This document shows, in pieces, positions 1 to 55,218 of a DNA stretch of 64,000 nucleotides (positions within the stretch are counted from its first letter, which is position 1; each line of letters starts with the position of its first letter). Position numbers and translations under genes: made by a program. The stretch lies in assembly GCA_965208125.1 (NCBI GenBank), contig OZ242320.1:3616001-3680000 (forward strand). The letters run 5' to 3'. A model generated the notes under the pieces. That model ran no database searches and was not told the origin of the DNA. It was given only the letters and a program-made list of their open reading frames with translations. Origin of the DNA: Candidatus Latescibacterota bacterium (GTDB lineage: Bacteria; Latescibacterota; UBA2968).

Positions 1-149
1 TACATCCCGATCAAATAGGTGCGGGAAAGATGGCAAAAGCTATTGCCGAAATGCTCGAACGTTCTGTGTCCGAACACGATCTATCCATAGATGGTGCCGA
101 GCAAACGCGAAAGTTCATAGAGCAGCAGTTAGCAAAACAGAAAAAATGA
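1..149 (+). CDS. 3' end of a probable glycosyltransferase (COG4671/GT28-C-like), truncated by window edge
   Basis: Frame from base 3 reads HPDQIGAGKMAKAIAEMLERSVSEHDLSIDGAEQTRKFIEQQLAKQKK* (TGA 147-149). The 'HPDQ...DGAEQT' ending resembles GT-B C-termini. Stops 8 nt before the next ATG. Not in the ORF track. Confidence 0.55.
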   Translation, partial: HPDQIGAGKMAKAIAEMLERSVSEHDLSIDGAEQTRKFIEQQLAKQKK

Positions 150-157
150 GGTAAAAA

Positions 158-1561
158 ATGAAAATTTACGTGCCACACCCATATTGCGACCGCGAGAAAG
201 TGATAGCGTCAAATAGTGGGGCGTCTCTATCAGGTTTTAACCATGTGCTGGCGTTATCGAAGTATTGCGAGGTGTATATGCCAGCGTCTGAAGCGGTGGA
301 TTATGGTCCGAATTTGCACGGTATTCGACTCGCATTTGAGACGATTGATTCGTCTCGCCAGTGGTTTGCGCGGCAGGGATTTGACGGGGTGCTGATGTTT
401 GAACCCAAAGCAGATGACCTGGCATTTTTTCGCCATGTGTGTCCCGCACCCATTGTGATTCGGCTGTCGTGTTCTTTTGGGCGCAATCGCGATTTTGTCG
501 ATAAAGTGCTTCAATGTTATTCGCTGTTGCGGCCTTATGATGCCTTGTCGCCCAAGTCGGCGTATGTCGCTGACGAAGTGGGCAAGTTGGTGTTTGACAA
601 GTCGTATTTGCGTCCGATTACCAATGGGGTAGATGCCGAGGTGTTCAAACCGATGGATAAGTTGCAAGCGCGCAAAGAGGTCGTGGATAAGACAGGTGAT
701 CAACGCTTTTTGGAGATGCCTGTGGTGGGTTTTTGCGGGCGGTTTGAACCGGGCAAGGGCGCGTATTCATTTTTGCGAATGGCCGATCTGAATCCCAATG
801 TGTTGTTTACAGTGATTGGCAAGCAGTTCGCTCCCGTGACGCATCCTCCCAATGTGATCTTTTTGGGCGCGCAACCCTATACGGATATGCCGCTGTATTA
901 CAATATGCTGGATGTGTTGTGCGCGTTGTCGGTGTATTCGTATGAGTCGTGTCCCTCAACTGTGATAGAGGGCATGGCGTGTGGTCTTCCGGTTGTGGCG
1001 ACAAATTTTGCGGGTGCGCCAGAGTTGTTGGGCAGTTGTGGGCAGTTGATAGAGATTGAGCGATTTGAAGATGAGCCATTGAATGTGACGGGTTATATCG
1101 ATCCTGAGGTGATTTCAGATGCTGTGCGCGGTTTGTTGAATAGCAAAACGGAGCGGGAGAAATTGGGTGAGTGTGCTCGCAAACGCGCACTCGAATTTTC
1201 CTGGGATTGTATGGCACAGCAGCACCTGGCATTGTTTGAAGATCTGCTGACCAAACGCGATACACCCGCGTGTCCGATTCCACTAACCGTGAGTTTTACA
1301 CAGGGTTGTGATATATCTGGTGTGCCGAAGAGTGTGTCTAAGGGGTTTAACTATTTGGGCAGCAGGCAAGGCCCATTGCCGCGTATCCCGTTTTTGGGGC
1401 AGGATATGTCCCTTATTGAGGGTCTGGGCCTTCACTTGATGCAACATTTACATCCAAACGAAGTCGAAGCCGTCCTGTTGGGATTATGTGAAACGCGCGC
1501 TACAGCCTACAAAACGCTTCGCAAAATCCGACGCTTCAGCGATATGCTCACTGCTCCCTGA
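158..1561 (+). CDS. GT4 (GT-B) glycosyltransferase with ~100-aa C-terminal extension
   Basis: Motifs ITNGVD, VGFCGRFEPGKG, E-x7-E (ESCPSTVIEGMACGLPVVAT) and FSWD. GAGG RBS upstream. Confidence 0.9.
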   Translation: MKIYVPHPYCDREKVIASNSGASLSGFNHVLALSKYCEVYMPASEAVDYGPNLHGIRLAFETIDSSRQWFARQGFDGVLMFEPKADDLAFFRHVCPAPIVIRLSCSFGRNRDFVDKVLQCYSLLRPYDALSPKSAYVADEVGKLVFDKSYLRPITNGVDAEVFKPMDKLQARKEVVDKTGDQRFLEMPVVGFCGRFEPGKGAYSFLRMADLNPNVLFTVIGKQFAPVTHPPNVIFLGAQPYTDMPLYYNMLDVLCALSVYSYESCPSTVIEGMACGLPVVATNFAGAPELLGSCGQLIEIERFEDEPLNVTGYIDPEVISDAVRGLLNSKTEREKLGECARKRALEFSWDCMAQQHLALFEDLLTKRDTPACPIPLTVSFTQGCDISGVPKSVSKGFNYLGSRQGPLPRIPFLGQDMSLIEGLGLHLMQHLHPNEVEAVLLGLCETRATAYKTLRKIRRFSDMLTAP

Positions 1562-2077
1562 TGGATAGAAGGATACAGCTTGCGCTGAGGTAGTGAAGAA
1601 AGGAGGTGATAGAGATGAAGAGACGAGTTATATCAAATCCCGAGCAATCGGTCGCTGATGTGACCCCTCTACCGATTAAAACGAGTGATCTGGACGCGTA
1701 TCAAATTGCTCATATATCTGGTGGATCTATATTGGATGTCATCGGTGATTATATCAGTGAGGAATTGGGTATAGACGTACCAGATTTAGATGTTCATCCA
1801 TGGTCCTGGTAAGTTTTTGGTAGAGTGAATATTGGGCTTCCTGATAGTAATCGCGCTACACCTGCAAAAATCGACACTTCAGCGACACGCTCACGGCTTC
1901 TTGCGTCCCCAACAAGGGATGCTATTTGCACTGCGCTGAGGTGGTAAAGAAAGGAGGTGAGGAAGAATGGCGAGACGAATCATATCAAATCCTGAGCAAT
2001 CGGCTTCCTGTGTGACCGATCTACCGCTTGAAACGACGGATCTGAACGTGCATAAATTTTCTCAGGTCTCTGGTGGA
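1521..2077 (+). repeat. Degenerate direct repeat (1521-1725 vs 1864-2077): GT 3' end + RBS + leader of precursors 1/2
   Basis: gcaaaatccgacgcttcagcgatatgctcactgct vs gcaaaaatcgacacttcagcgacacgctcacggct; tgcgctgaggtagtgaagaaaggaggtga vs tgcgctgaggtggtaaagaaaggaggtga; the leader codons are then similar. Confidence 0.85.
1615..1812 (+). CDS. RiPP precursor peptide 1 (37-aa GG leader + 28-aa acidic core ending HPWSW)
   Basis: AGGAGGT RBS at 1601-1607, ATG 1615. Leader has L(-12), I(-7), I(-4), GG. Paralogous to the next ORF and upstream of a C39 transporter. Confidence 0.85.
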   Translation: MKRRVISNPEQSVADVTPLPIKTSDLDAYQIAHISGGSILDVIGDYISEELGIDVPDLDVHPWSW

Positions 2078-2182
2078 TGTTACCCGACCCCGGAGGAAGA
2101 GTTCAGTGAAGAATATGACCCAACACTGGAAGGTATTTTGGATGATGTTGACCCCTTTTACCCCTGGTCCTGGCCAATGTAA
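1967..2182 (+). CDS. RiPP precursor peptide 2 (37-aa GG leader + 34-aa acidic core ending YPWSWPM)
   Basis: AGGAGGT RBS. Leader RRIISNPEQS...LNVHKFSQVSGG aligns without gaps to precursor 1. Confidence 0.85.
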   Translation: MARRIISNPEQSASCVTDLPLETTDLNVHKFSQVSGGCYPTPEEEFSEEYDPTLEGILDDVDPFYPWSWPM

Positions 2183-2328
2183 TTCAGAACCCGGTAAGTA
2201 TTTGGCTCAGTGGAACCTGTTGGTCATTTGTTGTAAATCTCTAATTTTTATTTTTCAAGTACTAAAAAACCAGCTTTATTCTACAAAGTACTTGATAAAT
2301 TTTACAATTCATTTATTCGGAGGATATC

Positions 2329-2637
2329 ATGTCTGCTGTCGCATTAAATAATCGCGTGACTTCAGATTCAGACGCTATTTTTGCGTCTTGCACATCACTG
2401 CCCATCCAGCAAACAACGCTCAATTGTGAAAAAATGGCAGGTATTGATGGTTTATGCCTGTGGGGGACAGTTTTTGGTGAAGTGCACGAGCTTATTTCTG
2501 AATGGGAAGATCAGTTGGAAGATGTTAATACTGTAGCTTCGCTATATTATTATGGCGGTGTTGTTGTTTTGTCTGCCGACCCTCCTGAGCCTGGGGTTGA
2601 GTATCCCCTAATAATACCTAATAAGAAGCTGTTTTGA
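2329..2637 (+). CDS. RiPP precursor peptide 3 (42-aa leader ending GL + 60-aa core)
   Basis: GGAGG RBS. Leader is closely similar to precursor 4 and aligns ungapped to precursors 1/2 (T-x-LPI...L-N...A-x-I-x-G). Confidence 0.8.
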   Translation: MSAVALNNRVTSDSDAIFASCTSLPIQQTTLNCEKMAGIDGLCLWGTVFGEVHELISEWEDQLEDVNTVASLYYYGGVVVLSADPPEPGVEYPLIIPNKKLF

Positions 2638-2747
2638 AATTATTGGGACCTATCCCTTTACTCCTATCCGCGTCAATTTAAGGGGTAAATCACTGTCACT
2701 CCTGCACATGTGGTATCACAATTCCTTTCATTTACCCGGAGGCTATC

Positions 2748-3011
2748 ATGTCCCCTATTGCATCAAATAATCGCTTGACTACGTATTCAGATGCCGCTTT
2801 CGCCTCTTGCACGGCACTATCTATCCATCAAACAACGCTCGACATTGAAGAAATGGCAGGTATTAATGGATTGTGTCATTCTGAGCAAGAAGAAGAAGAG
2901 AATTCTGCAATCCCGACACCACCCAGTCAAGCGGTCATTATGTATTACATATTGAAAGCTAAGAGGCGAATGGAAACCCCCGTGATTTACTGTTCCTATT
3001 CTATTTGGTAA
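2748..3011 (+). CDS. RiPP precursor peptide 4 (42-aa leader ending GL + 45-aa core)
   Basis: GGAGG RBS. Leader NNRLTTYSDAAFASCTALSIHQTTLDIEEMAGINGL is conserved with precursor 3; the core is unrelated. Confidence 0.8.
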   Translation: MSPIASNNRLTTYSDAAFASCTALSIHQTTLDIEEMAGINGLCHSEQEEEENSAIPTPPSQAVIMYYILKAKRRMETPVIYCSYSIW

Positions 3012-3032
3012 GGTGCATCAACCCGTTATTTC

Positions 3033-3064
3033 TGTGGCTACGCCGTGGGCATGGCGTAGCCACA
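3033..3064 (+). promoter_or_regulatory. Stem-loop between precursor array and transporter (attenuator or mRNA stabiliser)
   Basis: Perfect 12-bp stem tgtggctacgcc/ggcgtagccaca with no U-tract. Confidence 0.6.
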
Positions 3065-3083
3065 CCACATAATGGATTGAAAA

Positions 3084-6000
3084 ATGAATCTTTCCCACTT
3101 TTTCTTAAAAAACTCGGTGTGGACGCAGTCTGTTCATTTTCCCTTTGGAGGTGTTGTTTTTCAACAGGGGCAAGCGGGTGAGGCGTTTTATATTGTGGAG
3201 TCTGGACGGTTGCGGGTGATTAAGCAGGATGCGAATGGTACTTCGACAACTGTGGGATATTTGTATGCGGGCGATCATTTTGGTGAAGGGGCACTGTTGA
3301 CCAGGCAGGGGCATCGGGCAACGGTGCGAGCGGTTGAGGATGCGGAGGTGTTGCAGGTGCCCAAGGATGAGTTTTTTAAGGCTGTGAGAAAAAGTTCTGA
3401 TGTACGAGCCTACCTCGAAGAGCAGGTTGCCTGTATTGCATATCGGGATTTTACGCGATTTTTGAAAGGAGATGTTCCGGGCGAGGCGATGCGGGTGTTG
3501 TTCGCGCGGTTGAAGCGCGAGGCAGCTGAGGAGGGTGTGACCGTTGTTGAGCGAGGTCAGTTGGGTCAGCGATTTTATTTGCTTGGTAGCGGTCAGTTGG
3601 AGGCTGTGTTAGAAAATGGTGATACGGTGATTCTACGCCCGGGTGATTATTTTGGCGATGGTAGAGATGATGAAACGATCATTCGCAGTCGGCGTGATGG
3701 TGTACTCTTTTATATAGATAAAAGCAATTTTAATAAGCTAAAAGCTATGATGCCGGGATTCGAGGAGGCGTTGGATAAAGGCTGCATATTGCGTGGAGAA
3801 GAGGGATCAAGAGGGGAATTGCGACCTGTGCTTGAGCCGCCTGTTGTGCGATCTGTTACCCAAAAAGATACAGAGCCTAATACAGCATCCAATGTGGTTA
3901 ATATCAGAATAGACGGTGAAAAACCACAAGTACCTACATTGTTGCGTTTTCCGTTTTTGAAGCAACACGATCAATCAGATTGCGGCGCGGCGTGTTTAGG
4001 CATGATCTGTAAGTATTACAAGATGCCTATTGGATTAAACAGGTTGCGCGATATGTCCAATGTGTCGCGGTATGGCACGTCAATGGCGGCATTGGCCGAG
4101 GCTGCGGAGACACTGGGCTTTGTCACGCGCGGTGTGCGAACGGGTTATGAAGCTCTGATGCGAACAGAATTGCCAGCTATTCTCCACTGGGAAGGCAATC
4201 ATTTTGTGGTCCTGTATCAGATGAATAAAAAGGAAGTGAACATAGCGGATCCAGGTGTGGGTATTCGCAAGCTGTCGCGGGCAGAGTTTGAAAAGGGTTG
4301 GACAAACATGGCGCTTTTGTTGGAATACACGGATCAGGTGGCAGAGAATGAACCCTCTCGGTCTTCTTTTAAGCGGTTTTTTCCATTAATCAGACCCTAT
4401 ACAAGCATTTTGATTGAGGTATTGTTGGCGTCTTTGGTACTCAGTTTGTTTGGTCTGGCATCACCCATTTTTATGCAGACGATTGTCGATCAGGTCTTAG
4501 TGCATCACGATGAGGATTTATTGAATTTGATGCTGGTGGGTATGGTCGTTGTCGCATTGTTCCAGATGGGTACATCGACGTTGCGTGTCTATTTAATCGG
4601 GTATGTGAGTGCGCGATTGAGCATTGCGATGTTGTCGCGTTTTTATCGGCATTTATTGGCACTATCCATGCGGTTTTTTGCCCTCAGGCGCACGGGCGAT
4701 TTGACCACGCGGTTTCGGGAGAATGCAACGATTCAGCGTTTGTTGACGGATACGACGGTTTCTGCGGTTCTGGATTTTATCATGCTTTTTGTCTATCTGG
4801 GTCTGATGTTTTATTACAATGCGGAACTGACGCTGGTCATGTTGATTTTTGTGCCGCTATCTGTGGGTCTCACGCTGATTTACACACCCATTTTGAAGTC
4901 TTTTAGCCAGCGTGCTTTTCTGGCGCGTGCCGAACAATCCTCGGTTTTAATTGATGCGCTGCACGGTATTGATGTGGTTAAAGCCGAGGCGGTGGAGCGC
5001 GCGACACGGTGGCATTGGGAAGGTAAGTTCACAAGGGAAATTCAGATTGGCTTTCAACGGTTAAAAATGCAGATGTTGTTTGGGGGGATGGGAAGGGTAA
5101 TTAATTTGCTGAGCAGTACGGTGATTTTGTGGTATGGTGCCTCATTAGTGATTGCGGGGGACCTGTCGGTTGGGCAGTTGATGGCGTTTAATGCGCTGAT
5201 TGGCAATGTGATGGGTCCCATTATGGGCTTGATCGGAATATGGCCTCAGGTGCAAGAAGCGCGTATTGCCCTGGATCGGCTGAATGATGTGTATGACACG
5301 CAGATGGAAGATGCGCGGCAGCAAGGTCAGGGTTTGATCTTAAAGCATTTGGTAGGGCGCGTGGTTTTTGATGCGGTGTTTTTTAGATATGGTGTTGGTT
5401 CTGATGAACCTTATGTGTTGAATAATATAGACCTGACGCTTGAGCCAGGTCAAAAGGTTGCAGTTGTGGGACGCAGTGGTGCGGGTAAGACGACGTTGGT
5501 CAAGCTGTTGCCCCGTTTGTTTGATCCGTCAGAAGGTCGGGTGATGATAGATGGTATGGATGTGCGAGATCTGGATCCCCATTGGTTACGGCGACAGGTG
5601 GGTATGGTGATGCAGGAGCCGTTTTTGTTTTCTGGCACGATTGCAGAAAATATCGCTATAGGTCAGTCAGATGCGGATATGGATCGCATTTTGGAAGTGG
5701 CGAAACTATCGTGTGTCCACGATTTCGTAAGTGATATGCCTTTGGGGTATGAGACAAAGGTGGGTGAGCAGGGCGTGGGGCTGTCTGGCGGACAGCGACA
5801 GCGGATTGCCATTGCCCGAGCACTTTACCATGATCCGAAAATTTTGATTTTTGACGAGGCGACCAATGCGTTGGATACAGATTCAGAACAGGCGATACAG
5901 GCGAATTTAGATCTGTTTTTGGATGATCGCACGGCGTTGATTATCGCGCATCGGTTGAGTACGGTGCGCGATGCGGATGCGATTGTGGTCTTAGATAAGG

Positions 6001-6092
6001 GTCATATTGTAGAGATGGGCACGCACGATGAGTTGATGGTGCAACAGGGTTTGTATTATCACATGTGTAGTCAACAGTTGCAGGTGGTGTGA
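3084..6092 (+). CDS. Peptidase-containing ABC transporter (2x cNMP-binding + C39 peptidase + TMD + NBD)
   Basis: cNMP motifs (FYIVESG...GDHFGEGALL; FYLLGSG...GDYFG). C39 motifs QHDQSDCGAAC, HWEGNHFVV, IADP. Walker A GRSGAGKT, signature LSGGQRQR, Walker B ILIFDEAT. Confidence 0.95.
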   Translation: MNLSHFFLKNSVWTQSVHFPFGGVVFQQGQAGEAFYIVESGRLRVIKQDANGTSTTVGYLYAGDHFGEGALLTRQGHRATVRAVEDAEVLQVPKDEFFKAVRKSSDVRAYLEEQVACIAYRDFTRFLKGDVPGEAMRVLFARLKREAAEEGVTVVERGQLGQRFYLLGSGQLEAVLENGDTVILRPGDYFGDGRDDETIIRSRRDGVLFYIDKSNFNKLKAMMPGFEEALDKGCILRGEEGSRGELRPVLEPPVVRSVTQKDTEPNTASNVVNIRIDGEKPQVPTLLRFPFLKQHDQSDCGAACLGMICKYYKMPIGLNRLRDMSNVSRYGTSMAALAEAAETLGFVTRGVRTGYEALMRTELPAILHWEGNHFVVLYQMNKKEVNIADPGVGIRKLSRAEFEKGWTNMALLLEYTDQVAENEPSRSSFKRFFPLIRPYTSILIEVLLASLVLSLFGLASPIFMQTIVDQVLVHHDEDLLNLMLVGMVVVALFQMGTSTLRVYLIGYVSARLSIAMLSRFYRHLLALSMRFFALRRTGDLTTRFRENATIQRLLTDTTVSAVLDFIMLFVYLGLMFYYNAELTLVMLIFVPLSVGLTLIYTPILKSFSQRAFLARAEQSSVLIDALHGIDVVKAEAVERATRWHWEGKFTREIQIGFQRLKMQMLFGGMGRVINLLSSTVILWYGASLVIAGDLSVGQLMAFNALIGNVMGPIMGLIGIWPQVQEARIALDRLNDVYDTQMEDARQQGQGLILKHLVGRVVFDAVFFRYGVGSDEPYVLNNIDLTLEPGQKVAVVGRSGAGKTTLVKLLPRLFDPSEGRVMIDGMDVRDLDPHWLRRQVGMVMQEPFLFSGTIAENIAIGQSDADMDRILEVAKLSCVHDFVSDMPLGYETKVGEQGVGLSGGQRQRIAIARALYHDPKILIFDEATNALDTDSEQAIQANLDLFLDDRTALIIAHRLSTVRDADAIVVLDKGHIVEMGTHDELMVQQGLYYHMCSQQLQVV

Positions 6093-7475
6093 ATGGCAGA
6101 ATCGCTTTTAGAGACACCAGCAGAGACAATGTCTCCAGGTATAATCCAGGGACAAGATGACGCGGCAGAAGAGGTGCATGCGTTTATGGGATCCTTGCGG
6201 CCCTTTTGGGGTCGTGCATTGCTCTATATTGTCCTGCTATTTGTAATTATTGCCATTATCTGGGCATGGTGGGGCAAGGTGGATGTGGTGGCATCAGCGC
6301 CTTTTCGGCTGGTGCCCCTCGGACAGGTGAAGACGATGCAGGCGCGGCGAGGTGGTGAGATTGAGTTGATTGGTGTGAAAGAGGGAGATCAAGTCGAGAA
6401 AGGGCAGGTATTGTTCAAGCTCAAATCGTGGGAGACCTGGGGAGAGTTGCGGGAATGGGAACAGGCAAAGATGGCTTTTCAAAAGGCAGAGTATGATCTC
6501 AAGACGGTGTTGTCTCAAAGGGCGAGGTTAAATCGAGAGACGATAGAGGCATTGGAGCAACGTCTTTCTGTTTTGCAGCAGTTTATGGAGGCACATCAGG
6601 ATGCGTTGGAAGATTATCAAAGCGATGTGGCCGGTGTTGAGGGATCGAAAAGCAAAGTATCTGACGTGGGGTTGCAAGCGCAGATCGGGTTTCGTCAGGC
6701 TGAAATTGATCATTTGAAGGGGGAGTTTTTGCAGCAAAAGACGCTGTTTGAGCGCGAGTTGATCAGCCGGGCGGATATGAATCGCGCGCGCGTGCAGTAT
6801 TTAAGTGCTCTGTCTGCGCTTCCCTCGCGTATGTCGGAGATATACAAGAATGAAATGGCTGTACAGGATCTCAAGCGTCAAATCACAGAGGCGCGCATTG
6901 CACATGGTCGCGAGACTTCGCAGATGCAATACGCTTATGAGACTGCACAATTGCGATTGGAACAGGCGCGCAAACGCATTGATCGGACCCTCGAAGCCGA
7001 GTCGGATTTGATTCTGGCACCTGAGTCGGGCGTTGTAACACAGGTGATAGTGAATGCGATTGGACAGGTGATCAACAAGGGGCAGGCTCTCATTGCACTG
7101 GCACCTGCTTCAGCACCGATGGTTGCAGAGGTGAGGGTTTTAAATAAAGATGTGGGCTTGCTCAAACTCGGGCAATTGGTCAAGCTGAAATACGATGCGT
7201 ATGCCTTTCAGGATTTTGGTATCAAACGCGGGTGGCTTACATCCATCTCGCCCGATGCGGTGATCGATGAACGTATTGGACCGATATTTAAGTGCGTTGT
7301 TGAATTGGAAGAAAATACCATGCGCGTGAAAGGATATGACAAACCTCTGATGTTTGGTATGAAGGGCACGGCGGAGATGATGACAGATCGGCAATCGGTT
7401 TTGCTGATATTACTTTCTCCTTTGCGACAGCTTTACGAGTCGGCGAGGTACGATGTTGAGGAGGGTGCGTTGTGA
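6093..7475 (+). CDS. HlyD-family membrane fusion protein (type I secretion)
   Basis: N-terminal TM helix, GVKEGDQVEKGQVL hairpin, long coiled coil, APESGVV, VKLKYDAY, GMKGTAE. Starts directly after the transporter stop. Confidence 0.93.
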   Translation: MAESLLETPAETMSPGIIQGQDDAAEEVHAFMGSLRPFWGRALLYIVLLFVIIAIIWAWWGKVDVVASAPFRLVPLGQVKTMQARRGGEIELIGVKEGDQVEKGQVLFKLKSWETWGELREWEQAKMAFQKAEYDLKTVLSQRARLNRETIEALEQRLSVLQQFMEAHQDALEDYQSDVAGVEGSKSKVSDVGLQAQIGFRQAEIDHLKGEFLQQKTLFERELISRADMNRARVQYLSALSALPSRMSEIYKNEMAVQDLKRQITEARIAHGRETSQMQYAYETAQLRLEQARKRIDRTLEAESDLILAPESGVVTQVIVNAIGQVINKGQALIALAPASAPMVAEVRVLNKDVGLLKLGQLVKLKYDAYAFQDFGIKRGWLTSISPDAVIDERIGPIFKCVVELEENTMRVKGYDKPLMFGMKGTAEMMTDRQSVLLILLSPLRQLYESARYDVEEGAL

Positions 7476-8251
7476 TGGTGGAGGATGCTATGTTGATTCA
7501 GGTCAATAGTATCGCAGTATCATTGCACCATATTGTGCGACAATTAGGAGTTGCCGATAATCTACGTTTTTTTGATGAATTTGCGCGTAGAGAATTGATC
7601 CGGCAACTCGCGCTACGTGAGGGTGTTTGTGCAGCGCGTGAAGATATTCAGCGTAAGGTGAATGAATGGCGGTATCAACATCGCCTCGAACGGGTGGAAG
7701 ATACAGAGGCTTATCTTGCAAAGCGGGGTATTACGCTTCAGGATGTGGCAGAAGATGCCGAGGTGAGGCGGCTGGAGTTTTTGCTGTCTGAGAAGATTGC
7801 CGAGGGACAGGTCGAACCCTATTTTGCACAACACACATTGGAATTTGATGAGGCGGAGATTTGCTGGATTTTTCACACGGATGAGGGTGTGATCGACGAG
7901 GTTGATTTGCAGATACGAGAAGATGGTGCAGATTTTTACGCGATGGCGCGTCGGTTTTCTCAAGATGCACACACGCGGCCAGGTAGTGGCTTTTTGGGTC
8001 GTGTGAGGCGCAAGCAGTTGCCAAAGGGGATTGCTGCACGCGTGTTTGCCGCTTCACCGGGTGAAATTTTGGGTCCAGAAAAAGTATCGAAAGGCTTTGC
8101 GCTGTATTTGTTGCAGGAACGCTATCCGGCAATGCTGGACGAGCGGATTAAAAAAGAAATTCGCAAGCACCTGTTTAATCAGTGGTTGCAACGAGAGATG
8201 CAGCGGGCAGATATACGATATCCGATTTGGCAGGCGAAAGTCTCTAAATAG
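7472..8251 (+). CDS. PpiC/parvulin-like peptidyl-prolyl isomerase-related peptide maturation protein
   Basis: DFYAMARRFSQD...SGFLGRVRRKQLP...GEILGP rotamase-like motif. GTGA overlap with HlyD. Confidence 0.85.
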   Translation: MMVEDAMLIQVNSIAVSLHHIVRQLGVADNLRFFDEFARRELIRQLALREGVCAAREDIQRKVNEWRYQHRLERVEDTEAYLAKRGITLQDVAEDAEVRRLEFLLSEKIAEGQVEPYFAQHTLEFDEAEICWIFHTDEGVIDEVDLQIREDGADFYAMARRFSQDAHTRPGSGFLGRVRRKQLPKGIAARVFAASPGEILGPEKVSKGFALYLLQERYPAMLDERIKKEIRKHLFNQWLQREMQRADIRYPIWQAKVSK

Positions 8252-8264
8252 AAGGAGAATATGG

Positions 8265-9344
8265 GTGAAAATTATTCTTGTTGCGGGTGCGCGGCCCAAT
8301 TTTATGAAAGTTGCCCCGCTGTGGAATAGACTGATCAAGATGCCCGATGTGTTTGATCCGATTTTGGTGCATACGGGACAACACTATGACGATTTTATGT
8401 CCGAGATTTTTTTTCGAGACTTAAATCTTCCCAGGCCACATTATGAATTAAATGTGGGGTCGGGCAGTCACGCGTACCAGACAGCGCAGATCATGATGGG
8501 ATTTGAGGATGTTTTACTTCAAGAAAGGCCGGATTGGGTTCTTGTCGTTGGCGATGTAAATTCCACTCTGGCATGTGCGATGGATGCAGCAAAATTGCAA
8601 ATCCCCGTTGGACACATAGAGGCAGGGTTGAGAAGCAGGGATAGGTCAATGCCCGAAGAGATCAATCGGCTCGTTGTGGATGCCATATCCGATCTTTTGT
8701 TTGCACCTTCGATGCAGGCGTGTGAAAATCTGAGGCGCGAAGGCATAGAAGAGAGCCGCATTCATTTTGTGGGCAATGTGATGATAGATTCCCTTGTGTT
8801 GCTATCTCCCAAAGCCGATGAATCCCGCATTCTGGATATACACGGTTTATCAGTTCAAGAGTACGTTTTTCTGACTCTCCATCGAGCCTCAAATGTCGAT
8901 TGCCCAGATACGTTGGCTGGCATTGTATCCGCGTTGCAAACCTTCAAATGTCCAATCGCCTGGCCTTTACATCCGAGAACCCGCAATCGCCTATCCCAAT
9001 TTGGTTTTTTGCAAAGGCTTGAGATGATGGACAATATCAAACTTATGGATCCGGTGGGCTATCTCGATTCTTTAAAACTTCAGAAGAATGCAAAATGTGT
9101 GATGACAGATTCTGGAGGATTGCAAGAAGAGACGACGGCTTTGGGTGTGCCGTGTTTGACGCTTAGAGAGCATACAGAACGCCCAGAGACTATAGATATT
9201 GGGACGAATACACTTGTGGGTGTTTGTCCCGAACGCATTGTTGCAGAGGCTGAATCTGTTTTGAAAGGGCACTATAAATCCGGTCGCTTGCCCGAGTTGT
9301 GGGATGGCAATACCGCAGAGCGAATTGTTGCTTTGCTTTGTTGA
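8265..9344 (+). CDS. wecB: UDP-N-acetylglucosamine 2-epimerase (non-hydrolysing)
   Basis: Motifs GARPNFMK, HTGQHYD, GDVNST, HIEAGLRS, PEEINR, TDSGGLQEE, TERPET. GTG 8265 with AGGAG RBS. Confidence 0.95.
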   Translation: MKIILVAGARPNFMKVAPLWNRLIKMPDVFDPILVHTGQHYDDFMSEIFFRDLNLPRPHYELNVGSGSHAYQTAQIMMGFEDVLLQERPDWVLVVGDVNSTLACAMDAAKLQIPVGHIEAGLRSRDRSMPEEINRLVVDAISDLLFAPSMQACENLRREGIEESRIHFVGNVMIDSLVLLSPKADESRILDIHGLSVQEYVFLTLHRASNVDCPDTLAGIVSALQTFKCPIAWPLHPRTRNRLSQFGFLQRLEMMDNIKLMDPVGYLDSLKLQKNAKCVMTDSGGLQEETTALGVPCLTLREHTERPETIDIGTNTLVGVCPERIVAEAESVLKGHYKSGRLPELWDGNTAERIVALLC

Positions 9345-9440
9345 CGTATGGCGTACGCCAAGTTCTCAATTGTGTCAGAAATGTAATTTCTCTATAATTG
9401 TATGAAGAGGAAGTATATTAAAAAAAGAGGCTGTAACAGG

Positions 9441-9854
9441 ATGGCAGAAAAAACAGACGAAGAAAGGGTGTCTATTTGGAGCACAGGAGATAAAGAAAGA
9501 ATATGGTTTATATCCTTAGCCTCGGCATTCTTTTATACTTCACTTATACTGATTCTTTGGCACAAAATTATTGAAGTTGATTACAATGCGATTGTTGAAG
9601 TAATCAATGTCATAGGATCTGCAAGTCTTGCTGCCATAGCATTAGCATTCTTCATTATAGAGGGGGTAAATCTTATGATTATTCCAGTTGAAAAATATCG
9701 CCAAAAACAACGACAGAAAGGTCGACAGGAGGGTCGGCGAGAAGAGCGGCAAAAGATTTTTAAAGCAATAGAGTTGGCCTGTCCGGAGGTTGATATAGAG
9801 GCCATCCGTGCTGCATTAGAAGACCAGAATAGGAGTGCAGAAAACAGTAAATGA
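9441..9854 (+). CDS. Hypothetical membrane protein with charged GRQEGRREE tail
   Basis: Two hydrophobic segments followed by RQKQRQKGRQEGRREERQ. AT-rich coding sequence. Start could be 9402 or 9441. Confidence 0.65.
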   Translation: MAEKTDEERVSIWSTGDKERIWFISLASAFFYTSLILILWHKIIEVDYNAIVEVINVIGSASLAAIALAFFIIEGVNLMIIPVEKYRQKQRQKGRQEGRREERQKIFKAIELACPEVDIEAIRAALEDQNRSAENSK

Positions 9855-50147: not shown

Positions 50148-50278
50148 GATATACTTCCAAAATGCGGGTATGTCAATACTAAAATCACGAGATTACTAAA
50201 GATAGCTTAAGTAATCGAAAAACTAACTGTGTGCGTCTCGGAAATTGTCTTGACATCTCAAAAGTTATTTGTTAGCAT
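50148..50278. promoter_or_regulatory. Divergent sigma70-type promoters
   Basis: Minus strand: TTGACA(50176-50171)-17-TATATC. Plus strand: TTGACA(50250-50255)-17-TAGCAT. Confidence 0.6.
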
Positions 50279-50327
50279 AAAAATTCAATTTTTTAAAATG
50301 TTCAGCATTTTAACAGGAGCCTCCTCG

Positions 50328-53300
50328 ATGCGTAAAATCGGCACAGGTATTCTCTGGGTCATCACGATTTTGATGTTGTCTTCGGTGACCATTTTTAATC
50401 CGGGACAGGTGACGGATTTTTTTGTCACGCTTTTTAATATTAAACCGAGTATTCCCGAACTCAAACCCATTGAAATTTCAGAACGCGATCGAGAAATTCG
50501 ATCCATTGCAGCGTCCATTACACAAGAAGATGTGCATCAAATCATTGCCGACCTGTCGGGGATGGGGTCTCGGGTGCCTGGCTATGCGGGGCACAGGCAG
50601 GCTTTTGAATATGTCAAACAGCATTTTGAGCAATTTGGTCTTGAAGATATCGTGGTCGAAGAGCACACGGTAACGGTTCCTATCGACAAAGGTGCTTCAC
50701 TCACTTTGACGGATACCGGTGAAGAAATTGCGATCTACGGTTTTTGGCCCAACCATGTACAAACGCCCTCTGTGCCCAGCGCTGGAATTTCGGGGGCACT
50801 TATTTATGGGGGCCAGGGGTCATTTTCAGAACTGAATGGCAAAAAGGTCGAAGGCAGCATTGTCCTGATGGACTTCGATTGTGGCCAGGGCTATTTAAGC
50901 CCGCGTATGCTGGGGGCGCAGGCCATTTTATTTTACGACAATGGGCGGGTTACACAGGGGCAAGCTATGGATAAGTTTTTGCCCGTGCCCGTTGATGTGC
51001 CCCGGTTCTGGGTCAAAAAAGACGATGCTGTGCGTTTGCTCGAACTGGCCCAAATGCAATCTCCCGAAGTGCGTTTAACATCAAAGATGGATTGGGAAGA
51101 GGTGCCGACCTGGAATATTTTTGCAACTCTTCCAGGATCCGAAGACTATATCACGGAGCGCGAAGAGCGCAAGTGGAAAGATCAGCAGATTGTGTTGAGT
51201 GCTTTTTACGATGCCATTTCCGTGGTACCCGCTCTTGCGCCGGGTGCTGAAAATGCGTCGGGGATGGCTGCGCTTTTACACACTGCCCGCGTGTTGAAAC
51301 AGAATCCGCCCAAATATTCGGTAACCTTTTTGGCAACGGGTTCTCATTTTCAAGGTCTGGCTGGCATCAATGATTTTGTGTATCGCCACTCGCGCGAAAG
51401 CGATCATTTCCGCGATAAGATTCCCGATAGTGTGTCGGTTGCTGGTGCTTATCTCGATGGCGAACTTATTCCGCGCGACAGCGAAGATTTTGAAGAACTC
51501 ATTCCCAATAGCTATAAAATCGATTTCCGGTTATTTATCGGGTTGGACCTGTCGAGTGAATCCGATCAGTTGGCGAGCTTTTCGCACGGCACTTTTAACA
51601 ACCCAAATTGGCAGACAGACAATTATTTGAATAATCTGCTGGCGCCTTATGCGGATAAATTCGATAAATATATGGCCAAAGTTTTTCCGGACGAAGACGT
51701 GCGCCATGTCGATGCGATTGCACCGCCAAAACGCACCTGGAAGAATTTTATGCCCATTCGCCTGGGATTTGATAGCGAGGCCGTTACTTTTGTTGGGAAA
51801 GAAGGCATTACACTGGCAACGCCATCAACCGTGAGGCGGTTTGTCGATACGCCTATTGATCGCGTTGAACACGTCAATATGGACAATTTGACGCGCCAGA
51901 TCCAAACGGCGATCGCTGCCATGATGAAAGCGGGCGAAGATCCCGAGTTTTTCCGGGTGTCCAAGCTCAAACTGCAAGATCGGGGACACAGTTTGAGAGG
52001 GCAGGTATTGTGGTTTGATCGCAATGTCGATTTCGCGTTGCCCCGCGTGCCTGTCCCAGGGGGGGTTGCGACGTATCGACAGCCAGGCAATGTTCATAGC
52101 TGTGCGGGGGTGCGTACGCTGATTATTGACAAGACGACAGAAGGTCCCATTTACGATATCGATAAATTGGCAGACAATCAGACAGAAGATGCAGATCTAA
52201 AATTGTTTGGCGACAAAGAGAAGGTAAAGGAAACTGGATGGTTTTCCTTTGATATTATGCGAAATCGGTTTACCAATCGCATTTTGGCTTATGATATTGA
52301 TGAAGAGGGGACAATTACGTCGGCACCCGACATGGGGACTGAGGGCGACAAAAAATTCCCACTGACGCAGCGATATGGCTGGTGGGAAAATGAAATGCTG
52401 ACAGTTCTGTTTAAGAGCCGCTCCATCAGCGTTTTTGAAATTATCGACTCGAGCTATTTGTCCGCGCTCGATTTTATGACGGTGCTCAACGACAACGATA
52501 CGCAGCCCATAGAATTTGGCTATACGTATTTGCCGGGACAAAGCACCAAAGAGGGCGACGTGACGCGCGCTGCCGTGACGTTTGCGCGTGTGGATGAATA
52601 CACGGGAGAAGCCGAGCGGTTGAAAGTTTTGATGAGTACGGGCTTGTTTGGTGTTAAGTATTTGCTGATCAATGCGCCCCAGAAGTTTTTGGACAATCCC
52701 GTTGATAAAAGCGAGGTAAATCCCGAGCTTCTGGAAGAGGCGCGAGGTGAGGGGTATGAACCAGGTGTCATTTTCAGACCTTCGTATCAGGCCGCTAAGG
52801 ATATGTGGGTAATTGACGATGTGCGGATGAAACAGTTGGCGCAATTTGGTATTGAAAACAATCGGCTCACCCTGTTGCACAACAGCGCGCGTGAGGCATT
52901 GATCGAAGCGCGTCAGCACCTTGAAAATTTGGATTATGAAGGGTTTATGAACGCATCCCGACGGGCCTGGGGGCTGGAGGCGCGGGGGTATCCCGAAGTG
53001 ATGGCGACGGCCAATGATACTGTGCGGGGTATTATTTTTTATTTTATTTTGTTGTTGCCGTTTTCATTTTTCTGTGAGCGGTTGTTGATCGGCGCGTCGA
53101 GTATTACCGCGCGATTGAGTTGGTTTGCCGCATTTTTTGTATTTTTCTTTATCGTTTTGCGCTTTGTCCATCCGGCTTTTCAGTTGAGCAATTCCCCCTA
53201 TATTATTTTTCTCGCATTTGTGATTATGGCACTCGGCGGCGTGGCGATGGTTATTGTGGTGTCTAAATTTGGCGATGAAGTACGCAAGATGAAGCAGGCG

Positions 53301-55181
53301 TCTGCCGGGACTTATGAAGCCGATGTCGGGCGCATTAGCGCGACGTCGGCTGCGGTTGTGCTGGGCATTTCAAATCTGCGAAAGCGCCCCATGCGCACGG
53401 GGTTGACGGCCATTACGCTAACTTTATTGACTTTTACGACATTGTCTTTTACCTCGGTGCAGACTTCGTTGAAATTTTACAAATTGCCCCGGGATAACGA
53501 GCCGTCATATCAGGGAGCACTCGTGCGCGATCGATCCTGGCGCGGGATGCAAGAATCCGTGCTCAATTATCTCAATAGTGCTTTTGAAGGCCGCGCCGAT
53601 ATTGTGCCGCGATCGTGGTATTTGTCACAGGTGCGTGGTGAGCGCGCTTATGTGAATTTTTCTCGCGTGACAGAGGCCACAGCCGATATGGGACCCAAGG
53701 AGATTTACGTCGATTTCGATGTGGGCATTACCACGGGGAAAGACAGTTTTGTCAATGCGCTGTTGGGGCTTACGCCAGACGAACCCAAAATTACCGGGGT
53801 TGATCGCTATTTGATGAGTGGGCGATGGTTTGAACCCGGAGAAGAGTTCGTTTGCCTGTTGCCAAATGATCTGGCCGAGCTCGTCGGTATTTTCCCCGAA
53901 GACGCCGGTACAGCCAAAATTGAAATGCAGGGACAGGTTTTTACGGTGATTGGCATTCTGGATTCTGAAATGTTTAATAAGTTCAAAGATCTGGATGATG
54001 AAAAACTGACGCCTGTTGATACGGTTAAAGAAAAAGACGATTTGGCAGATGCACAGGATCAGGATCCGAGGGTTGTCGCGGCTGCGCCGATTGAGACCTT
54101 TACCCATTTGGAATCGACCAATGTGCTTGTCGTGCCCTATGAGTATATTCGGGATATCGGGGGCGTGTTGGCCTCAGTGGCGATTGCGAATTTCAAGGAT
54201 GAGAGCGGACAGCCTAAGTTGAATTTTGTCCCCGACATTGAAGAGTTTATGGCGCGCGTGTCTTTAACGATGTTTGTGGGCAAGGATGATGGTGTAACCG
54301 TCTATAGTTCGATTGGTTCGACATCGCTTTCTGGATTGGGCAATTTGTTTATTCCTATCTTGATTGCGGCGCTTATTGTGCTCAATACTATGATGGGTGC
54401 TGTGTATGAGCGTTTCCGGGAGATCAGTATTTATTCTTCGGTGGGATTGGCCCCCAATCATATTGCCGCACTTTTCCTCGCGGAGGCCGGCGTATTTGCC
54501 ACACTCGGTGCGGTTATGGGATATTTAATTGGACAGGTTCTGGTGCTCATACTTTACAATGAGGGATTGTTGGGAGGCCTGGAATTGAATTATTCGTCGT
54601 TATCTGCAATTTCCGCCACGTTGATTGTGATGGCAACGGTATTTCTCTCCGCGCTTTATCCAGCCAAAAAAGCCGCTGATATGGCCGTGCCCGATGTGAC
54701 CCGCAAATGGGAATTTCCCGATCCAGATGGCGATCGGTGGATATTTGATTTTCCCTTTACAGTAGGCGGTGCTGAGGTATTGGGTATGTACTCTTATTTG
54801 ACCCGGGTTTTTGAATCTTATGGTGAGGGATCGGTAGGTGATTTTGTTGCAGATCATGTGAAATTCTGGTCTGAGGATCACGAGGGAGAACCGCAATACA
54901 ATATTGACCTGACGGCATGGTTGGCACCTTATGATCTGGGAATTAGCCAGGAAGTGCAGTTAAAAGCTATTCCAACGGGTGAGCACAATATTTATAAAAT
55001 TGAAGTGGTGATCAATCGCTTGAGCGGCGATGTGGCGTCCTGGAAACGGATCAATCGCGGATTTTTGAATGTGTTGAGAAAGCGATTCCTGGTCTGGCGC
55101 ACAATTCCGGGCGACATGAAGTTCAATTATGCAGAAGACGGACGCCGGATTTTGGCTGGCGAAGTCGCGGCAATAGCATAA
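50328..55181 (+). CDS. Giant membrane protein: M28-peptidase-like/PA ectodomain fused to FtsX/MacB-like permease
   Basis: GSRVPGYAG, PA-like segment, PGAENASG; later SNLRKRPMRT and GAVYERFREISIYSSVGLAP. AGGAG before ATG 50328. Confidence 0.8.
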   Translation: MRKIGTGILWVITILMLSSVTIFNPGQVTDFFVTLFNIKPSIPELKPIEISERDREIRSIAASITQEDVHQIIADLSGMGSRVPGYAGHRQAFEYVKQHFEQFGLEDIVVEEHTVTVPIDKGASLTLTDTGEEIAIYGFWPNHVQTPSVPSAGISGALIYGGQGSFSELNGKKVEGSIVLMDFDCGQGYLSPRMLGAQAILFYDNGRVTQGQAMDKFLPVPVDVPRFWVKKDDAVRLLELAQMQSPEVRLTSKMDWEEVPTWNIFATLPGSEDYITEREERKWKDQQIVLSAFYDAISVVPALAPGAENASGMAALLHTARVLKQNPPKYSVTFLATGSHFQGLAGINDFVYRHSRESDHFRDKIPDSVSVAGAYLDGELIPRDSEDFEELIPNSYKIDFRLFIGLDLSSESDQLASFSHGTFNNPNWQTDNYLNNLLAPYADKFDKYMAKVFPDEDVRHVDAIAPPKRTWKNFMPIRLGFDSEAVTFVGKEGITLATPSTVRRFVDTPIDRVEHVNMDNLTRQIQTAIAAMMKAGEDPEFFRVSKLKLQDRGHSLRGQVLWFDRNVDFALPRVPVPGGVATYRQPGNVHSCAGVRTLIIDKTTEGPIYDIDKLADNQTEDADLKLFGDKEKVKETGWFSFDIMRNRFTNRILAYDIDEEGTITSAPDMGTEGDKKFPLTQRYGWWENEMLTVLFKSRSISVFEIIDSSYLSALDFMTVLNDNDTQPIEFGYTYLPGQSTKEGDVTRAAVTFARVDEYTGEAERLKVLMSTGLFGVKYLLINAPQKFLDNPVDKSEVNPELLEEARGEGYEPGVIFRPSYQAAKDMWVIDDVRMKQLAQFGIENNRLTLLHNSAREALIEARQHLENLDYEGFMNASRRAWGLEARGYPEVMATANDTVRGIIFYFILLLPFSFFCERLLIGASSITARLSWFAAFFVFFFIVLRFVHPAFQLSNSPYIIFLAFVIMALGGVAMVIVVSKFGDEVRKMKQASAGTYEADVGRISATSAAVVLGISNLRKRPMRTGLTAITLTLLTFTTLSFTSVQTSLKFYKLPRDNEPSYQGALVRDRSWRGMQESVLNYLNSAFEGRADIVPRSWYLSQVRGERAYVNFSRVTEATADMGPKEIYVDFDVGITTGKDSFVNALLGLTPDEPKITGVDRYLMSGRWFEPGEEFVCLLPNDLAELVGIFPEDAGTAKIEMQGQVFTVIGILDSEMFNKFKDLDDEKLTPVDTVKEKDDLADAQDQDPRVVAAAPIETFTHLESTNVLVVPYEYIRDIGGVLASVAIANFKDESGQPKLNFVPDIEEFMARVSLTMFVGKDDGVTVYSSIGSTSLSGLGNLFIPILIAALIVLNTMMGAVYERFREISIYSSVGLAPNHIAALFLAEAGVFATLGAVMGYLIGQVLVLILYNEGLLGGLELNYSSLSAISATLIVMATVFLSALYPAKKAADMAVPDVTRKWEFPDPDGDRWIFDFPFTVGGAEVLGMYSYLTRVFESYGEGSVGDFVADHVKFWSEDHEGEPQYNIDLTAWLAPYDLGISQEVQLKAIPTGEHNIYKIEVVINRLSGDVASWKRINRGFLNVLRKRFLVWRTIPGDMKFNYAEDGRRILAGEVAAIA

Positions 55182-55218
55182 CGCGCAGATTTTGTGAATT
55201 TCCTTCTGGGAGGCAATT

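Follow-up and report, generated by a model that had tools for sequence, protein, structure and literature searches.

A candidate leader-directed glycopeptide cassette with GT4-type glycosyltransferases in Candidatus Latescibacterota

Gene content and conservation of the locus

The window analysed here is a 64-kb stretch of Candidatus Latescibacterota DNA (genome G000, contig C1, positions 3616001-3680000, forward strand). At its left end lies a cassette of genes for glycosyltransferases (GTs), small precursor peptides, a peptidase-containing ABC (ATP-binding cassette) transporter (PCAT) and accessory proteins. The best reading of this cassette is a pathway for a leader-directed glycopeptide, that is, a candidate RiPP (a peptide made on the ribosome and then modified post-translationally); we infer modification of the peptide core from the covariation of the GTs with a serine motif and from a weak complex prediction. 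All ten co-oriented genes reported in an initial annotation are found on the + strand:

1..149, + strand: 3' end of GTa, GT28_C/MurG-like C-terminal part
158..1561, + strand: GTb, a GT4 enzyme of 467 aa, proposed priming peptide glycosyltransferase
1253..1561, + strand: C-terminal domain of GTb, present family-wide; its order in the full-length model is strand-strand-strand-helix-helix-helix
1615..1812, + strand: precursor p1, 65 aa, leader family match
1967..2182, + strand: precursor p2, 71 aa, leader family match
2329..2637, + strand: precursor p3, 102 aa, leader family match
2748..3011, + strand: precursor p4, 87 aa, leader family match
3084..6092, + strand: PCAT with two cNMP (cyclic nucleotide)-binding domains, C39 peptidase, ABC membrane domain and nucleotide-binding domain
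6093..7475, + strand: HlyD-family membrane fusion protein (TIGR01843, 216.5 bits, cut-off 208.65)
7472..8251, + strand: PpiC/rotamase-like protein, member of the export trio (PF00639, 1.7e-12)
8265..9344, + strand: WecB, non-hydrolysing UDP-GlcNAc 2-epimerase (TIGR00236, 337 bits, above cut-off)

The gene order was borne out on re-inspection, as were the spacings of 0, -4 and 13 nt between the PCAT, HlyD, rotamase and wecB genes. Each of the four small open reading frames (ORFs) is preceded by GGAGG, resembling a ribosome-binding site. The genome has one copy each of the C39 domain, HlyD, rotamase and wecB.

GTa is an 861-aa ORF (genome positions 3613564-3616149) running into the left edge of the window. 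It joins an N-terminal GT4 domain, Stp3-like (TIGR04063, 332 bits, below the cut-off of 442), to a C-terminal GT28_C/MurG-like GT-B domain (PF04101, 7e-12) that belongs to a broad family. The model of GTb (pLDDT 88) has a GT-B fold followed by a C-terminal domain of 100 aa and matches GT4 structures; SenB and LmbT are among the matches. The donor-binding Arg/Lys and the EX7E motif are intact (R195, K200, E263, E271). By its modelled fold and donor-binding residues GTb is a retaining GT4 glycosyltransferase. Only GT4 and GT28_C matches were obtained for the genes of the locus, and none for GT2.

The C-terminal domain of GTb was considered as a RiPP recognition element (RRE); it may be one, but the searches gave no match in favour. 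A model of the domain by itself is of low confidence (mean pLDDT 66, strands below 50), Foldseek gives no match at E <= 0.001, there is no sequence match in the PDB, and the top score in the Atlas is 0.76.

The PCAT has two cNMP stretches, the C39 motifs QHDQSDC, H and D at residues 294, 368 and 387, and the ABC motifs. Thus the transporter is intact, as annotated, and with its HlyD partner it has the make-up expected for export of a RiPP by a PCAT. The tandem of cNMP-C39-ABC protein, HlyD and rotamase is the known make-up of cyanobacterial group I/II/VI cassettes. The rotamase-like protein, listed initially as part of a candidate new system, is indeed present, but it belongs to this known export trio; its score with the peptide maturation model TIGR04500 is 86 bits, below the cut-off of 180.

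The gene wecB had been regarded as a dedicated sugar supply. It turned out to be an optional addition rather than a core gene, present in only 8/29 assessable loci. Split by the N-terminal GT4 domain of GTa, wecB occurs in 8/13 of the assessable loci that have this domain and in 0/16 of those that lack it, a comparison that is not an independent-sample test, since the loci are kin.

GTb was found in 25/61 related genomes, including 20/20 of the same genus (up to four matches per genome), and a profile search for the GTb family was positive in 24/168 genomes of the phylum. The cassette is conserved in Ca. Latescibacterota. We compared 37 loci, namely the window's own locus and 36 fetched around the 37 matches outside G000. 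A GT28-like domain lies upstream of GTb in 33 of them, the PCAT and HlyD are present in 32 each, and the rotamase in 30. Most missing parts fall at contig ends; in L040 GTb stands alone as an orphan, and in L039 it is broken. The core of the cassette consists of the GT28-like domain, GTb, the precursor array and the export trio. A leader model grown from the window precursors, suggested as a check, finds precursors in 36/37 of these loci; GTs, precursors and PCAT are syntenic across genomes, with wecB only an accessory.

In genome G009 the cassette is split: the intact orphan GTb of L040 lies about 40 kb from a second locus, L195, in which GTa and the exporter accompany three precursors that carry the motif. 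In L026, and also in L029 and L030, a GTa-like ORF has the reversed order, GT28-like domain first and then a different GT4 domain, and there is no wecB.

Beyond a 280-nt gap 5' of GTa lie a CAAX protease gene and a gene for a DUF3267 peptidase. The expectation that further tailoring genes lie to the left of the window failed, as the GTa fusion was the sole one seen in the 30 kb upstream. Neither a polymerase nor a flippase nor a priming phospho-GT was seen adjoining the GTs in the window and these 30 kb. Promoter and terminator scans stayed at chance level (19 vs 18.6; 20 vs 13.6+-3.9). An RNA library yielded 97 contigs, mostly less than 95% identical, over 28/30 bins; they were not used as evidence of expression, because contigs cannot show transcription.

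Near-identical upstream elements that include the ribosome-binding site precede p1 (1585-1614) and p2 (1935-1966) and are a trace of tandem duplication. A membrane-type ORF of 150 aa at 9402-9854 has no family match and one paralog elsewhere in the genome; such an ORF lies directly 3' of the rotamase gene in L018 and L045, both lacking wecB. Further to the right, positions 50229-57273 contain an ORF of 1650 aa that has M28 peptidase and FtsX domains; the ORF that follows, of 684 aa, has no Pfam match.

Precursor leaders and the serine motif of the cores

A hidden Markov model (HMM) was grown from the four window leaders and applied to 4,659 small-ORF candidates from the 37 loci. It retained 72 precursors in 36/37 loci, every one on the strand of GTb. 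In the whole genome of the window the model matches only p1-p4 at E < 0.04; weak tblastn matches of p1 near genome positions 98-100 kb and 163 kb were noise (a leucine-rich repeat protein and unrelated genes). The four window precursors match no NCBIfam or Pfam precursor family above cut-off, and their leaders match no NHLP or Nif11 model.

The leaders are about 37-43 aa long (37 aa in p1). All 72/72 leaders have the same Arg, Leu(-19) and Gly(-2), and positions -12, -7 and -4 are mostly hydrophobic. PCATs are described as requiring hydrophobic residues at -12, -7 and -4 and as cutting after GG, GA or GS (PMC10885120). The last leader residue (position P1) is Gly in 44 leaders, Leu in 18, Gln in 4, Ala in 4 and another residue in 2. 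Thus a GG/GA/GS-type site with hydrophobic leader positions is present in 48/72 precursors (44 with Gly and 4 with Ala), among them p1 and p2. Leaders of the double-glycine type are confirmed for these two, but the leaders of p3 and p4 end in Gly-Leu.

The 72 cores fall into 18 core families. The precursors fit the small-peptide pattern of a conserved leader and a variable core, and the four window ORFs indeed share a single leader family. The p1 leader ends in GG and is followed by an acidic core of 28 aa with DYISE, where the serine is Ser48 (codon 1756-1758). In p2 the leader again ends in GG, and the core contains EEFSE with Ser47 (codon 2105-2107). The p3 core contains ELISE with Ser57 (codon 2497-2499).

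The common pattern [DE]-x-x-S-[DE], noticed post hoc in the same data in which it was then tested, occurs in 58/72 cores as compared to 8.2+-2.6 in shuffles. Counted by core family, it is present in 11.6/18 families against 1.4 expected, a value reached by none of 1,000 shuffles. The Thr version was found in 2/72 cores. The flanks are acidic at -7, -3, +1 and +4 and hydrophobic at -5, -1 and +3, a helical pattern that suggests a likely amphipathic core helix. Two more precursors, both with the motif, were found in L205, a match in genome G012 fetched apart from the 37 loci.

The window cores p1-p4 contain 0, 1, 1 and 2 Cys. Cysteine accounts for 2.7% of all core residues, and some core families have Cys-rich tails. 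There is no thiol-disulfide oxidoreductase in the locus. A W-x-x-W site of the C-mannosylation type was tried as another candidate and rejected, being confined to a single core family (0.5/18 families vs 0.6 expected).

Loci L196-L202 represent a second PCAT clade (about 55% identity) that is accompanied by a pair of M16 peptidases. Their long acidic ORFs carry leaders that are divergent but belong to the leader family of the window precursors. The Ser motif is present in 4/6 of their cores, all four in GT-bearing genomes.

A sister genus without the glycosyltransferases

The C39 domain of the same PCAT occurs in 15/15 genomes of the sister genus g7, whereas GTb occurs in 0/15. Five near-complete g7 genomes have no family-level match to GTb or to the GT28-like domain, and generic weak matches were seen in 1/5 each. 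We fetched 11 g7 loci (L183-L193) with 35 cores. They contain the same leaders, the export trio and CAAX genes, with DUF3267 genes in 10/11, and no GT or wecB in any of the 11.

The Ser motif was found in 0/35 g7 cores, which is not significant by itself, as the shuffles expect 0.6. On the other hand, [ILV]A[DE] occurs in 23/35 g7 cores vs 4.1 expected, and [ILVFAT]S[DE] in 60/72 cores from GT-bearing loci vs 16.2 expected. In alignments of homologous cores, Ser is replaced in g7 in about five families (E from 6e-15 to 0.02), e.g. YISEEFG in GT-bearing loci vs WVAEIFG in g7, or DRVSEG vs DRANDA. In the orthologous transporters, taken as background, 625/909 Ser are retained (69%) and 70/909 are replaced by Ala. 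The mean core charge is -7.5 with GTs vs -0.9 without them. The leader Arg is present in 72/72 precursors with GTs and 19/35 without, a count favoured by the leader HMM, which was built from GT-bearing leaders. In locus L036, only a fragment of GTb is left, and the precursor motif is missing as well.

Immediately upstream of the first precursor in g7, an eroded 3' end of GTb can be recognized (z >= 5.9 in 6/11 loci, 2.0-4.1 in the rest). In a FastTree phylogeny of 49 PCATs, g7 (support 1.0) is placed among GT-bearing loci (enclosing node 0.91), although the root is not clean and the placement is judged by the support values. The eroded GTb ends and the nested g7 PCATs point to a probable loss of the GTs in g7, and the motif Ser probably went with them. 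To judge from these sequences, the g7 cassette looks like unmodified microcin-like arrays with near-neutral cores and numerous CAAX/DUF3267 genes, derived by GT loss.

An alternative is that the peptides are exported unmodified everywhere. The GTs would then make an envelope glycan or glycolipid, or provide self-protection, being merely co-regulated with the precursors, and the loss of Ser in g7 would be drift. Since exporter and precursors persist in g7, secretion does not need the GTs. Moreover, WecB and the GT4 domain of GTa resemble exopolysaccharide (EPS) genes, TIGR04063 being an EPS-associated family, and the GT28-like family is broad. There is also a precedent in the EbfG1-4/PteB system of Synechococcus elongatus, with four small GG-leader proteins and a PCAT (PMC4997328). 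However, the polymerase, flippase and priming phospho-GT of a glycan pathway were missing from the stretch searched around the GTs, RRE fusions occur within the GTb family (see below), and the parallel loss of Ser in about five core families contrasts with the 69% background retention. We regard this alternative as improbable.

Relatives of GTb, the proposed pathway and known systems

Full-length GTb relatives recovered in a profile search of 1.84 billion representatives measure 540-580 aa and are extended at the N-terminus by about 100 residues. A profile of this segment (A6) matches residues 5-78 of PDB 5wgg (E 7e-14), which we take to be the RRE of CteB, and in 18/25 members the segment matches the N-terminus of TIGR03974. 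By sequence, the distant relatives of GTb are RREs fused to GT4. The RRE-GT4 family occurs in 42/121 genomes of the phylum of genome G061, with up to 11 matches. In 27 RRE-GT4 loci an intact enzyme occurs together with a second copy that is without the catalytic residues; 23 loci contain small Cys-rich precursor-like ORFs with a leader unlike that of the window, 21 have an A24-peptidase-like gene, and one has a C39 match. Precursor-like genes thus adjoin the GTb family in two phyla whose leaders and exporters are unrelated, which argues that the acceptor of the family is a peptide.

Loci L163-L182 and L092-L107, from the G061 phylum and metagenomes, may represent a second candidate RiPP class with the RRE-GT4 active/dead pair. 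Its small ORFs have an F-x-x-x-E-x-G leader motif, presumably Flp-prepilin-like, a hydrophobic stretch and a Cys-rich core. The neighbours encode phosphomannomutase, NTP transferase, GHMP kinase, methyltransferase or radical SAM/SPASM proteins. In L203 (genome G205, another family), a distant GTb-family gene lies near an ABC transporter without any leader match; the ORF upstream of it looks RRE-like by eye.

We propose the following pathway. The substrate would be a variable, mostly acidic core forming an amphipathic helix with a [DE]-x-hydrophobic-S-[DE] sequon. GTb, as a retaining GT4, would transfer the first sugar to the sequon Ser, and the always-adjacent GT28-like domain would add a second. 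The Stp3-like GT4 domain, where present, might add N-acetylmannosamine derived by WecB. By analogy with established PCAT biochemistry, the C39 domain would cut after GG and the trio of PCAT, HlyD and rotamase would export the core. The order of the GTs and the identities of the sugars are guesses. We estimate the probability of this pathway as roughly 65%. The predicted complex of GTb with p1 scored 0.37 and the best control 0.01, with at least 29% contact agreement and a partner pLDDT of at least 36; as passes at or below 0.60 comprised 18/157 solved complexes plus both of the 2/215 mismatches that passed, it supports the pairing of GTb with the precursor only weakly. For the initial suggestion that GT-B enzymes act on the acidic cores, synteny, RRE fusions and Ser covariation all speak in favour, while glycosylation itself is what we infer from them.

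Another possibility is that the precursors are indeed acted on by the GTs, with the Ser motif serving as a docking helix, or with a chemistry that differs from simple O-glycosylation of Ser: modification of another residue, a glycosyl ester at Asp/Glu, transfer of a sugar-phosphate or a different reaction of the GT-B fold. Every covariation result would fit a binding motif as well. The GT-B folds include non-canonical transferases such as SenB and LmbT, and the RRE-bearing relatives serve cores without the motif. Precursors lacking the motif (p4 and those of L031 and L032) occur beside intact GTs, and the window GTb, having no RRE, may need another handle. On the other hand, only the hydroxyl residue flips, from Ser to Ala, with the hydrophobic and acidic flanks kept; Thr is not tolerated at this position; and the donor-binding residues of GTb are those of a canonical GT4. 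This explanation seems unlikely, if slightly less so than export of unmodified peptides.

Several further observations weigh against glycosylation of the sequon Ser by GTb, in addition to the limits already stated for the motif counts and the g7 trees. The motif is missing from 14/72 cores of GT-bearing loci, including p4 of the window, whose leader ends in Gly-Leu; in L031 and L032 both GTa and GTb are intact, yet the single precursor of each lacks the full motif. None of 46 precursor-like ORFs beside the RRE-GT4 relatives has a Ser-motif match, so the acceptor of the GTb family is not fixed. The window GTb has no N-terminal RRE, and its C-terminal domain does not match the RRE profile of the relatives (0.8% in hhalign). 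Leu at P1, as in p3, p4 and altogether 18/72 precursors, is outside the GG/GA/GS rule, which makes it uncertain that p3 and p4 are cut. The nearest family of the N-terminal GT4 domain of GTa is associated with EPS. Finally, g7 is one genus, so the control is close to a single phylogenetic contrast, and the GC content of its loci is 0.54-0.59 vs mostly 0.47-0.49, which favours Ala.

The closest known systems include the glycocins (sublancin, thurandacin, glycocin F), which have been described as the one RiPP class that glycosylation defines; the same change is proposed to define the class considered here, the GT acts on the linear precursor, and most characterized RiPP GTs are of the GT2 family (PMC11912497). 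As in the cassette considered here, the double-Gly leader is removed by a PCAT (PMC10885120). However, glycocin GTs are GT2 enzymes that S-glycosylate Cys, whereas here every GT domain is GT-B (GT4 or GT28-like). No SunS-like GT2 enzyme and no Cys-rich disulfide-bonded core with a Cys acceptor was found in the locus; the cores are acidic and mostly not of the disulfide type, and many unrelated ones share a candidate Ser sequon. The annotation of the cores as not glycocin-like agrees with this, given their few Cys and the lack of GT2. Were the locus a distant glycocin cluster or a member of some other RiPP class already described, the combination of GT, double-Gly leader and PCAT would be shared (PMC10885120), and our literature search, which found no description of the system, covered subscription journals thinly, so prior publication is possible. 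Nevertheless, there is no GT2 match in any gene, p1 and p2 have 0 and 1 Cys without an oxidoreductase in the locus, and no described precursor family matches. Identity with glycocins is largely refuted, and assignment to any described class is very improbable.

Cyanobacterial bacteriocin clusters I/II/VI have the same CAP_ED-C39-ABC, HlyD and SurA/rotamase genes and arrayed precursors (PMC3140520). Unlike them, the leaders considered here lack NHLP and Nif11 matches, and the term "glycosyl" is absent from the main text of that paper (PMC3140520). For EbfG1-4/PteB the likeness is by description rather than by sequence, and the abstract names no GT (PMC4997328). The GtfA/GtfB system of serine-rich repeat proteins similarly primes Ser/Thr in the cytosol before export, with extension by further GTs such as GtfC (PMC6973325), and its pairing recalls the intact and catalytically dead RRE-GT4 copies. 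It differs in its large adhesin substrates, SecA2/Y2 export and lack of a RiPP leader, and GtfA matches GTb at the fold level only (Z 19.2, rank 36).

RRE-GT fusions were flagged by RRE-Finder as outside known classes; they are uncharacterized, and the legible organisms of Fig. S7 include no Latescibacterota or Poribacteria (PMC7470986). The accessible part of a 2025 RRE update names GT2 (PF00535) fusions (PMC12710340), and that of a daptide preprint flags RRE-GT fusions without characterization. A GT4, Cao24, was proposed to add one sugar of the cacaoidin disaccharide (PMC8068269), but this is secondary tailoring on Tyr of a class V lanthipeptide, whereas here there are no other modifying enzymes in the locus. 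The sections available from surveys of sponge microbiomes mention no such cluster (PMC12993501, PMC9426513, PMC11832590). In one of them, antiSMASH "RiPP-like" and "RRE-containing" clusters of the uncultured lineage that carries the cassette are left unexplained (PMC12993501). The export trio is already known from cyanobacteria; Ser glycosylation, as proposed here for a GT4-type enzyme, is not known for this enzyme type in peptide natural products.

CAAX and DUF3267 membrane peptidases have a role in immunity. Such genes lie in or beside the arrays in 22/37 GT-bearing and 11/11 GT-less loci, and for this reason we favour antagonistic, microcin-like products. Matrix or signal peptides, by analogy with EbfG1-4, would be the alternative.

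The broader proposal is that glycosylation defines a new RiPP class here: a GT4 would recognize a short, helical Ser sequon within cores that are hypervariable, an oligosaccharide would be built by one or two more GT-B domains, and libraries of secreted O-glycopeptides would result. The same GT4 family, as RRE-fused active/dead pairs, would drive a second class, so far undescribed, whose cores are Cys-rich and whose peptidase is of the prepilin type. We would give this even odds. If it is true, the cassette defines a GT4-based RiPP class with a predicted sequon and exact residues for testing, and if the modification is shown, the system would count as a new class. GTb would then be a core-tolerant peptide O-glycosyltransferase, useful in glyco-engineering, and the GT-less sister genus would be a natural control for the role of the sugar. 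As the cassette is present in every genome of the genus that was searched, in up to four copies, its product is likely a major secreted product of this uncultured lineage.

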